Shown: positions 53,247 through 62,906 of the stretch, piece by piece
How the letters are laid out: the number at the start of each line of letters is the position of its first letter
Position numbering within the stretch: the first letter of the stretch is position 1
Origin: Octopus vulgaris
Taxonomy: Eukaryota
Reading direction: 5' to 3'
DNA: 64,000 nt
NCBI GenBank assembly: GCA_951406725.2
Contig: OX597825.1
Span: 48,236,001 to 48,300,000, forward strand
Position numbers and translations under genes: made by a program
The notes under the pieces: generated by a model
What the model was told of the DNA's origin: nothing
The model's input: only the letters and a program-made list of their open reading frames with translations
The model's database searches: none

Positions 53247-53825
53247 TATGTATAATATATGTATATATTTATGTGTGTGTTTATCCCCTCCACAGCTTGA
53301 CCACCGGTCTTTGTGTGTTTACGTCTACCTAAATTAGCGTAAATGACATATCCGTCTTCATCATAACATTTAAAATTGGTTACAGTGAAAATAGTGAAAG
53401 TTGCTCAAGTTTGTTTGCATTTGATGACAATACCGGAATGTGTGAGAAGTGGATATTTGAACCTGTGAAAAATCTTGACTTAATAGAAGACAATGAAAAT
53501 CATTTTTGAAATCACCAAATCAAAATTTCTAGGAAACATGTCTCCAACACCAGACAACAAAAACCAAGTTACCCACTGTTAGATATCTCTTCTATTGCAT
53601 TCGTTTCAGTCATTAGACTGCAGCCATACTGGATTTTAGTCGAACAGATCGCCCCCAGGCCTTATTTTTGTTTGAAGTCAGGTATTTATTCTATCGGCGT
53701 CCTTTTACCAACCTTCTAAGTTACAGGGAGATAAACAACTAGCACCGGCTGTCAAACAGACAGACATACACAAACACTCACACATGTATATATAGATACA
53801 TGTATGTTTGTATACACACACACAC

Positions 53826-54009: not shown

Positions 54010-56265
54010 GCTGATGCACCGCCGTTTTGTGCTACACTGTTATTACGAAGAGCCTCCTCTAATATGAGGCACTTGGTGAAGAATGGAGTTTGATATAACT
54101 ACTCTCATTTGCACCTGGGACTCTCGACAGGAAGATGTCCAGCTTTCATTTAAAAACAGCTACATCTACTTTGTGCAAGCTCCTCAGACTCTTTGGGAGA
54201 ATATTAAAAAGCTGTGGGCTCTTGAAACCCAGGCTGTTGCAGTAGCTGGTCCTGAAGCGTGATGGCATTGCTGGGATCTTTGGCACTATGCAGTGTCGTC
54301 CCGTTCTAGCATTGGTGTAGCTTACAATGCCAAAATTTGGCACAATTCCTTCAGGATCTTCCAGACATATATTACAGCATACCTCTCCCGTCTACTCTCC
54401 AGGGTGTTGAGTCTTAGCTGTTTCAACCTTTCCCAGTAGCTGAGCTGTTGCAAAGAGACGATTTTTTTGTGAATCTTCTCTGGATTGCTTCAAGGTCCGC
54501 TGTTAATTTCACACTGGTGGGTGACCATAGCTGTGAGCAGTAATCCAGGCGGCTGAGGACGAATGTCCGCCAGAGGACCATCATGGTTTCCTTATCTCTT
54601 GTTCTGAATGTTCTTAGGATCCACCCAGCCAGTCGTCTGCACTTTGTCGCCATCCTGGTAATGTGCACTTGGAAAGAGGTATCCTCACTCATGTCGATAC
54701 CCAGGTCCCTCACAGACTTAGGCTCTGGGATTGAAATTCCCTGTGGACCAGTGTATCCTGTAAGTTTAATATTCAGTTTTGGATGCTGGTAGCGCAGGGC
54801 CTGGAATTTTTCAGCATTAAACTGCATATTATTATCCTCAGCCCATCTGTAGATTGAGCCCAACTCCTGCTGCCGGTTTGCAACATCGCTGGAGTTCTGT
54901 ATTTTCTGCGAGACTTTCGTATCGTCTGCATAGTTTGCCAGAGTTGCTATCCGGGCATTTGAGGGCATATCTGAGAGGGCCACTATAAAAAGGAGTGGTC
55001 CCAAGACAGTGCCCTGTGGAACACCACTCACTATTTGTGTGTTCATAGAGGTGGCTCCATTAACCACTACTGCCTGACTCCTATCTTTCAGGAAGTCATG
55101 TAACCACACTCCAAGTTTTCCAGCTATGCCGAGGTAACGTAGTTTGTGGCATATCATACCATGATCCACCTTGTCAAAAGCTCTTGCAAAATCAAGGTAG
55201 ATTACGTCCACATTTGATTTGTTGAGTAACTGCTTCAACACCCAGTCATAATGTTGTAAGAGCTGGGTCAGGCAGCTCCTACCTGGTCGAAAACCACACT
55301 GGGTATCACTCAGCAAGTTATTTTCCTCAAGGAAAGTGATTAGTTTCTTTCTGACTATCCGTTCCATGACTTTGCTGATGTGTGAAGTCAGAGAGATAGG
55401 CCTATAGTTTTTGGCATCTGCTCTACTTCCCCCTTTATGTATTAGGCATATTATTCCCTCCTTCAGCTTGCTTGGCAGTTTGCCATTTGTAAGAAAGCTC
55501 TGGAAGAGAATCTTGAGGGGTTTTGCCAGGGCATGCTTACACGCTTTGAGGAGGATTGCTGGGAAACCATCTGGACCAGCAGTTGAGTTTGTGTCCACTT
55601 CATCTATGGCTTGTAAGACATCTTCTTCGCTAATGTCAATACATTCTATTGTAACCGCCTCGCTAGTTATAGGTGAGGTGGCAAAGAAGTCCACTGGTTC
55701 GTTCACTTGTCTGTGTTCCAACGGGGTGGTAAAGACACTTTTGAACTGGTCATTCAGCATCTCACTGATCTTAGTTGGGCTGTCTGTGAGGGAGCCATCC
55801 TTTTGGAGGAGGGGTCCTATCTTGTAGTGTACTGAGACTGTTTCTTTCGCGTAATGAAAGAAGGCCTTTGGGTTTGATTTAATGTTTTTATAACCCAGGC
55901 TTCTTTGTCTGCTTTCTCCCTCACATAGGATTGTTGCAGCCTTTTTTCGATCTCCATCAGTGTTGTTTTTAGGCGGGACGTTTCGCTACTTTTGGGATGT
56001 TGGTTGAGACGATTTGCAACCTTCGTCTGTCCTCTCATGAGGATCTTCTTGTCTCTTGGAATCTTGCTCCTATTTCTTTTGGCCTTGTGCTCTGGGACAT
56101 ATTTCTGGCATACGGCTTGCACAGAAGACATGAAACATTCTAGTTTCATATCAATGTCTGGTGTGGAGAGACATTCCGGCCAGTCCTCTCTGAGGATCTC
56201 TTTTTGGATCGATTTCCAATCTGTTTTGTGGAAGTTCAGATTGGAGAGATTTCGGGTGCTTCCTT
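54010..56265 (-). mobile_element. CR1/L2-group LINE, 5'-truncated, with a 445-aa open RT segment (54423-55760)
   Basis: AGPDGFP; NYRPISLTSHISKVMERIV; Q.GFRPGRSC; YLDFARAFDKVDH; GVPQGTVLGPLLF; YADDTK; RDLGI. Confidence 0.9.
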
Positions 56266-56375
56266 TATATGTATATATATGTGTGTGTGTATAAAAAATC
56301 TTGACGTAATAGAGAACAATGAATTTCATTTTATGAGTCAGCACGTCAAAATTTCCAGGAAGCATGTCTCCAACA

Positions 56376-56454
56376 CCGCAGTGAGCATTACTGATGAGTA
56401 TTAATTTCCTATACGAAATTTTCATGCTAATATAATGCATCTCGCTTACTGTGG
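56376..56454 (+). ncRNA. Type I hammerhead ribozyme with an extended bulged helix I (family G)
   Basis: GCAUUA CUGAUGA GUAU uaauuuccu AUAC GAAA UU uucaugcu AA UA UAAUGC. Distal helix CCGCAGUGAG/CUUACUGUGG lies beyond a bulge. Confidence 0.8.
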
Positions 56455-56572
56455 GATGTTTTCTCCCCTGTCAAAATGTGCTTTTTGTGGCTGAGGTGTG
56501 CTCACTGCACACATGTCACTCTTAGTGACAGTGAATTATTTTCTAGTTGGTTTTAAATTACTGATATCCACC

Positions 56573-56603
<31 letters not shown>

Positions 56604-56605
<2 letters not shown>

Positions 56606-62490: not shown

Positions 62491-62906
62491 TGCATGCACT
62501 AATTAAATACACGATATTCCGGGACGAAGAGTGAACTATTGAAATGACTGAAGCAATAGTTTCGGTCGTTTTGATGTCTTCAGAAGTTGTGGCTAAAAGT
62601 CAAACTACTTGAAGAATGGAGAAAAAGAAGAAAACAGACGCAGAATAGAAACAAAAAAAAAAGAAAGTTAATAGAAAAATGAACGATGGATCAACATGGT
62701 AAATTTGGTAACTTAGTAAAGGTTTAGTTTAATAATTATATGTGCTGAACGTTCACATTTATTCGTGATGGAGTGAGTAAACGGTTTGGTGTTTGCAAAG
62801 GTGCTAGAGAACAGGAACGTAAAGAAACTGCCAATGTCGCAAAAGTTCAAGGGATTTAGAACGTGCGACACGCACGCACACACACCCGCACACATACACA
62901 TACACA

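Follow-up and report, generated by a model that had tools for sequence, protein, structure and literature searches.

The locus considered here raises the question of whether an island of about 280 bp between microsatellites in the genome of Octopus vulgaris holds a hammerhead ribozyme that still acts in the cell, as the original prediction put forward. The answer that is very probably correct is that the island joins a fragment of an unrelated repeat to a copy of a hammerhead-bearing repeat of 345 bp that has been truncated and mutated, this copy being likely a dead non-LTR retrozyme insertion at a TA tract, with a Penelope-type enzyme as the likely agent. The window, i.e. the whole stretch of 64,000 nucleotides that was analysed, holds the following features:

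53345..53581, plus strand: second, independent copy of the repeat called family B below, which includes 53468-53551 and has no hammerhead
54423..56261, minus strand: 5′-truncated LINE with a reverse-transcriptase frame of 520 residues (RVT_1, E 5e-30), outside the element
56266..56292, no strand: TA/TG microsatellite at the left edge of the island, adjoining the 5′-truncated end of the minus-strand LINE
56293..56377, plus strand: family B subterminal fragment, likely a Chapaev3-type DNA transposon end, without the last ~35 bp of that end
56377..56453, plus strand: 10-bp distal pairing of the original prediction, an alternative register in which junction bases give three pairs
56380..56578, plus strand: 5′-truncated retrozyme copy, unit positions 162 to ~400, differing from the group majorities at 24-26 of 198 positions and with deletions of 10 and 29 nt
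56385..56438, plus strand: type I hammerhead (helix I 56385-90/56433-38, core 56391-97 and 56415-18, helix II 56398-56414, helix III 56419-56430)
56419..56430, plus strand: helix III region, a 12-nt palindrome in the family, of which 2 bp and the A15.1-U16.1 pair remain in the window copy
56430..56432, plus strand: cleavage triplet AUA (AUC in the family), with the predicted cut after 56432
56523..56578, plus strand: ~57-bp stretch at the 3′ end of the copy, repeated at both ends of 1.17-mer family insertions
56578..56605, no strand: (TA)14 tract at the 3′ junction, the usual target of the retrozyme family

Much of the motif is as first described. The CUGAUGA box (56391-56397), the 4-bp helix II with its 9-nt loop (56398-56414) and the GAAA box (56415-56418) are seen in the sequence, as are the AUA triplet at 56430-56432 and the mutated helix III, and the assignment to a type I hammerhead of a retrozyme-kind element is correct. 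The core agrees with the hammerhead consensus C3 U4 G5 A6 N7 G8 A9, G12 A13 A14 A15, U16 H17, in the published form of which position 17 may be A, according to the available part of PMC3088659. The core-adjacent pairs of all three helices form, with an open helix I of 6 bp and a helix II of 4 bp, and the palindrome of helix III is disrupted by two substitutions at 56421-56422. An Rfam scan of the window returned no matches at the gathering score, and no second family hammerhead lies within the window. The hammerhead region folds more stably than its shuffles (z of -2.9 and -3.0); its minimum-energy fold is not a hammerhead, and in the predicted fold of the window copy the UGA of loop I is paired. 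Constraining the sequence to the hammerhead fold costs ~12 kcal/mol in the window copy and 7.8-13.6 kcal/mol in family copies with 11-12 helix pairs, and since these costs overlap, constrained folding does not discriminate activity. The 10-bp extension of helix I (56377-86/56444-53, past a 7-nt bulge) can form, at an energy equal to that of a slipped 6+8 register, but it is not the register of the family. Elsewhere in the window, CUGANGA..GAAA motifs at 62583, 41343, 18243 and 13182 are candidate hammerheads of other families; a short degenerate (AACCCT)n telomere-like tract lies within the contig at 23456-23551; and 45699-46516 (minus strand) is a putative broken mariner-like transposase.

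The microsatellites flanking the island are there, but the view of the island as a single element does not hold, as it joins two unrelated repeats. A search of the genome (2.8 Gb, 227 contigs) with the island gave 51 matches, all of which, apart from the window itself, start at query position 78 or later; the best start at query position 88, which is 56380, and only one starts earlier, at 56370. The first 85 bp of the island match another repeat family, family B (57 matches), and the family B loci displayed have no hammerhead at the corresponding place. Since the retrozyme matches start at 56380 and the 85 bp upstream are family B, the island is not one element. In 15 of the 17 loci in which the right end of family B was found (20 examined), this end has the sequence GTG and is followed by TAA or TTA, and the signature of Chapaev3 in the accessible text of PMC4079192 is a GTG-3′ end followed by a TWA duplication; judged on this right end, family B is likely a Chapaev3-type DNA transposon. 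Two other placements were rejected, namely that the upstream 87 bp are the end of a Penelope reading frame, because the sequence belongs to family B, and that the island lies inside the LINE, because it adjoins the truncated end of the latter. In a second study, one DNA contig is identical to 56303-56404 and extends only 25 letters beyond the junction, too few for bridging it; the contig carrying the AUA allele stems from the study that also supplied the best-matching one, and may not be independent. Among the sequencing runs listed as containing the sequence there is no RNA run, a result that has no bearing on expression.

The composite nature of the island bears on two other proposals of the original prediction. 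The stretch 53468-53551, read there as a diverged copy of the upstream part of the ribozyme element that stops before the core, is a member of family B with 83% identity over 84 bp, and as the other members (the other 19 of 20 loci) show 76-83% identity to the island, it is no closer than they are and does not represent the ribozyme element in truncated form. The further pairing ggaagcat/atgttttc, which had been added to the extended structure, joins the two unrelated repeats and is at the level of chance: in 2000 shuffles, helices of at least 8 bp occurred in 15%, and those of at least 9 bp, the observed best, in 5.75%.

The family to which the downstream part belongs has a non-coding unit of 340-350 bp with a GC content of 36-41% and one type I hammerhead. 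Searches with two core patterns found 81 and 29 matches, against 1 and 0 in the reversed controls, which makes at least 110 cores. In the two DNA searches the best 40 of 446 and the best 40 of 695 first-look candidates were scored, so that the family size of a few hundred copies is an estimate. Tandem genomic arrays, which had been proposed as something to look for, were not seen in these searches, which score part of the candidates, none of the 81 and 29 core matches being spaced by one unit. About 34 of the 81 matches represent a single near-identical variant, which was duplicated together with the flanking sequence and is located at G000:C31:1.5-10.8 Mb, on C30 and close to the ends of C2, C7 and C14 (L005-L030), the copies often forming pairs separated by 12-25 kb; it has an intact core and a G-A mismatch closing helix II in 16 of 16 examined. 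The motif in its family form, having both C17 and the bases of the palindrome, also occurs in sequencing-run contigs labelled organisms B and D. Listings of the literature on octopus and cephalopod retrozymes, Penelope hammerheads and DNA-transposon hammerheads yielded no description of the family; it may already be included in the supplement of PMC7229834 and in the repeat library on which PMC13282606 is based.

The manner of insertion can be read from 74 clusters that remain after 21 loci of the duplicated variant (kept as L012) and the clusters flanked by a hAT transposon (see below) were dropped; a few of the 74 are split pieces of one insertion, and for many loci the flanks comprise only 1.5 kb. 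Thirty-six of them are longer than 350 bp and have the unit end preceding the unit start at many offsets, i.e. permuted head-to-tail junctions; a piece in inverted orientation is present in 23, and 49 have a microsatellite at the end. The sampled non-hAT copies showed no non-unit flank in common. Two same-strand hammerheads, both degraded, are held by only 2 of the 74, L193:770-1310 (minus strand), in which both cores are mutated and an inverted third copy is present, and L179:1435-1865; these two copies led to the rejection of the idea that the 5′ ends are capped at the cleavage site. Nine of 29 sub-monomer copies start at unit positions 150-162 (p ~6e-4), in a hand-picked list whose starts are local-alignment ends that may stop early and overstate the hot spot, and the 5′ end of the window copy falls within the same interval. 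The inversion or truncation points of L107, L113, L141, L150, L167 and L205 are grouped at unit ~145-165, the 5′ arm of the distal helix, and this clustering suggests a structure-linked stop of the reverse transcriptase.

A separate set of sister copies is carried by a DNA transposon. hAT flanks are common to 15 of the 20 copies closest to L002, the carrier being an element of ~4 kb with 15-bp inverted ends and an 8-bp target duplication that is exact in L088, 7/8 in L043 and absent in L052. A transposase profile of six fragments matches Hermes (E 0.004), with weak support from Pfam: Dimer_Tnp_hAT was returned at E 0.036, below the cut-off, for one of four carrier fragments, the other three being uninformative, and two L052 fragments gave no informative Pfam match. 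About 28 hAT loci carry the retrozyme (L044, L048, L052, e.g. G000:C1:64195500-64199950), 18 of them with the same 5′ junction. The insert is a 1.17-mer in the sense of the transposase, situated in a predicted intron whose GT donor and AG acceptor connect two coding stretches. Empty-site copies of the hAT exist as well, and L083 retains a single 57-bp repeat. The tree of the hAT copies is star-like and contains no branch with good support, although filled and empty copies cluster on it (3 changes vs 6.9 when shuffled); with the tree weakly supported, the split into lineages rests on six diagnostic sites (shuffled mean 0.8; 0/200) from 22 filled and 8 empty copies, of which L080 and L089 are partly mixed and L083 is of the filled type. 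A single insertion of the retrozyme into a hAT, followed by continued transposition, is likely. The window copy is not among the hAT-borne copies. Titles and abstract beginnings of the literature on retrozymes nested in hAT introns and on DNA-transposon hammerheads revealed no such case.

The fold of the family was derived from an alignment of 53 of the 57 independent motif-covering copies and one hAT copy (54 rows), L108, L194, L198 and L204 having been excluded for deletions or truncation in the motif. It consists of a 6-bp helix I, an internal loop with URA, 3 bp and a 6-bp distal helix (unit 153-158/228-233), together with a 4-bp helix II and a 4-bp helix III within the 12-nt palindrome. 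Of the 1371 cells, 85.9% are paired, and double changes number 77 versus 37.7 in shuffles, with compensatory pairs in helix II (CG 30, UA 20) and helix III (GC 26, AU 17); as three subfamilies drive these counts, they reflect few events and are inflated by subfamily relatedness. RNAalifold, applied to 21 copies, recovered the family helix I and paired the core with the palindrome, without real covariation there. The original prediction had named conservation of its distal helix in other copies as one of the points on which it could fail, and that register is largely not conserved: it is 66% paired versus 82% for the family register, two of its pairs fail to form in 50 of 54 and 45 of 53 rows, and in a smaller copy set 157-229 covaries (p 0.005) whereas 165-229 does not (p 1.0). 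Owing to a near-repeat in the 5′ strand, four of its distal pairs can form in 81-91% of the copies, which makes the register an available alternative.

The loop II sequence UAAWUU and the URA of loop I are kept in the family (39/54), loop II starting with a near-invariant UAA, UU, which at the level of sequence suggests tertiary contacts between loops I and II in the family; the general role of such contacts in hammerheads is treated in the accessible portion of PMC6155905. The longer helix III of the family would favour cleavage as a monomer; animal motifs with a helix III of 1-2 bp need dimers, as stated in the available text of PMC4209133. What had been claimed of an extended helix I and of monomer competence thus finds its place, as a prediction, in the family with its covarying helix I and stable helix III, but not in the window copy, which has lost them.

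That copy comprises unit positions 162-400 of the 345-nt circle, i.e. its 3′ 60%, and is 12-13% diverged; a divergence of 12% would correspond to roughly 30 million years, if the dating in the available part of PMC13282606 applies. Its A17 is unique among 66 copies (the 65 others having C in 62, U in 3 and A in none), and it is without the 5′ arm of the conserved distal helix and without two helix III pairs. With the 5′ arm gone, the freed 3′ arm pairs with 56377-56386, an arm that takes three bases from the junction, and it is by this pairing that the UGA loop becomes paired. A complete monomer unit flanked by a second hammerhead is not present at the window copy, which, with one hammerhead and no 5′ half, would be unable to release a monomer. 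The view that selection has instead kept it as a ribozyme or monomer active under physiological conditions, with cleavage sped by the extended helix I, and that it is indeed the best candidate for one, can draw on an intact core with core-adjacent pairs, on the possible 10-bp distal pairing, on a fold z of about -3, on a core identical to the family majority despite the overall divergence, and on a helix III of 1-2 bp being normal for animal type I motifs in the text available from PMC4209133. It is very improbable all the same, as the copy is chimeric and truncated, has lost the distal helix and the helix III palindrome, carries the unique A17 and has no second hammerhead nearby, and as the distal pairing uses junction bases and pairs the UGA left unpaired in the family fold. 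The intact core argues little in its favour, being found in about half of the non-duplicated copies (11 of 24 hAT-borne and 12 of 25 independent ones, in a sample that favours intact cores since many copies were found via the core pattern); in the 24 hAT passengers core decay amounts to 16/254 (6.3%) versus 367/5066 (7.2%) elsewhere, and as cores decay at the neutral rate, an intact one is no sign of selection. The window copy is likely a dead relic and not a working ribozyme; residual test-tube cleavage of the isolated motif is conceivable, if on balance doubtful, and would be without a role.

In the model proposed for the family, multimeric transcripts would self-cleave at AUC into ~345-nt monomers, which would circularise, following which a Penelope-like reverse transcriptase with a GIY-YIG nuclease would prime at (TA)n and copy 0.3 to 1.6 turns of the RNA circle, with frequent stops or inversions at the 5′ arm of the distal helix (150-162), where the window copy begins. 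It is the combination of Penelope-like insertion marks with the lack of a coding part that leads to the non-LTR retrozyme picture. Penelope-type GIY-YIG frames are abundant and reach 781 residues, and three of the six displayed are followed by (TA)n; an autonomous partner was not found among them, none of 25 GIY-YIG loci (of 150 scored) sharing sequence with the retrozyme unit. With no array among the 110 core matches and two hammerheads in just those two clusters, the source array is unseen. Two GIY-YIG elements, L213 and L218 (G000:C16:20838796 and C16:33685215), have open 781-residue frames, and their 3′ ends carry repeated TGATGACGTC motifs and no hammerhead by a simple pattern. The same footprint of partial tandems, inverted 5′ copies, a short repeated tail and TA targets would also be left if the family were the pseudo-LTR of an autonomous Penelope-like element (PLE) whose coding part was unsampled, the window copy then being a 5′-truncated PLE end; animal retrozymes are reported to derive from such pLTRs in the available part of 10.64898/2026.07.22.740005, and just the best 40 candidates were scored per DNA search. 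This origin is nevertheless unlikely, since the sequence upstream of the unit start in long copies is the unit's own end, at varied offsets and never an ORF, since the 25 GIY-YIG loci show no similarity to the unit, and since the canonical 6-bp and 4-bp helices are unlike the minimal PLE form described in the accessible text of PMC4209133; no reverse-transcriptase/GIY-YIG frame between pseudo-LTRs was found either, the sampled copies having no shared coding flank. If the family were a satellite at the DNA level or belonged to the hAT, and were not mobilised through RNA, this would account for the shared hAT flanks and for the many near-identical copies within duplicated blocks, but such an origin is scarcely credible: the empty-site hAT copies form a separate lineage, which largely refutes it, the 74 clusters outside the hAT bear retro-insertion footprints, and RNA-structure covariation extends across the subfamilies.

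As a non-LTR retrozyme the family is a further example of a kind of element already known. It has the 150-450 bp non-coding unit, the GC content below 50% and the one type I hammerhead by which non-LTR retrozymes are recognised, and shares with those of metazoans (220-240 bp in coral, 350-390 bp in mussel and 330/350 bp in axolotl, in the available part of PMC7229834) its unit of 340-350 bp, the 6-bp helix I, the 4-bp helix II and the head-to-tail junctions, as well as a moderately self-paired circle (z of -1.4 to -3.1 in 10 of 10 copies). It differs from them in being old and in consisting of 0.3-1.6-mers, a few hundred in number and dispersed, among which no array was found, the window copy being a fragment, and in its helix III, a 12-nt palindrome able to form 4 bp where 1-2 bp are usual. 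Penelope-like insertions are characterised by 5′ truncation, partial tandems, inverted 5′ copies and (TA)n targets, according to the available text of 10.1101/2021.04.23.441226, and with the PLE pseudo-LTR hammerheads, as far as PMC4209133 was available, the family has in common the insertion footprint, the short repeated tail and the palindromic helix III, whereas it has no attached RT/GIY-YIG frame, no long helix II and no extra base after A9. For vertebrates, the accessible part of 10.64898/2026.07.22.740005 regards solo copies as non-transposing offspring and gives cleavage in one of nine dimers tested; the two consecutive intact hammerheads that define an active element there are found neither in the window nor in any sampled copy. 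The carrier, in turn, is like the Hermes hAT in its ~4-kb length, 15-bp inverted ends, 8-bp duplication and putatively Hermes-like transposase, and unlike it in holding a hammerhead retrozyme in a predicted intron. A broader reading, in which the hAT acquired, in the intron of its transposase, a monomer-competent retrozyme that would cut its transposase pre-mRNA, and continued to transpose as the vehicle of this ribozyme, and in which the family would have spread from circles without lasting arrays, with a loop contact of its own and a long palindromic helix III, is put forward tentatively and is rather doubtful as a whole.

For the window copy, the implication is that what looks like an extended, fast hammerhead can result from the joining of two dead repeats, and that a helix of this sort needs to be checked against its family. 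The family in turn offers a usable fossil record. Compensatory changes in its three subfamilies delineate a type I hammerhead whose helix III is a long palindrome, and the insertions, of which there are dozens, preserve traces of the way in which a small RNA circle is likely copied by a Penelope-type enzyme, among them a hot spot of stops or inversions at the distal helix. The filled, empty and solo-repeat copies of the hAT, finally, constitute a natural test of whether an intronic self-cleaving RNA may silence a transposase.
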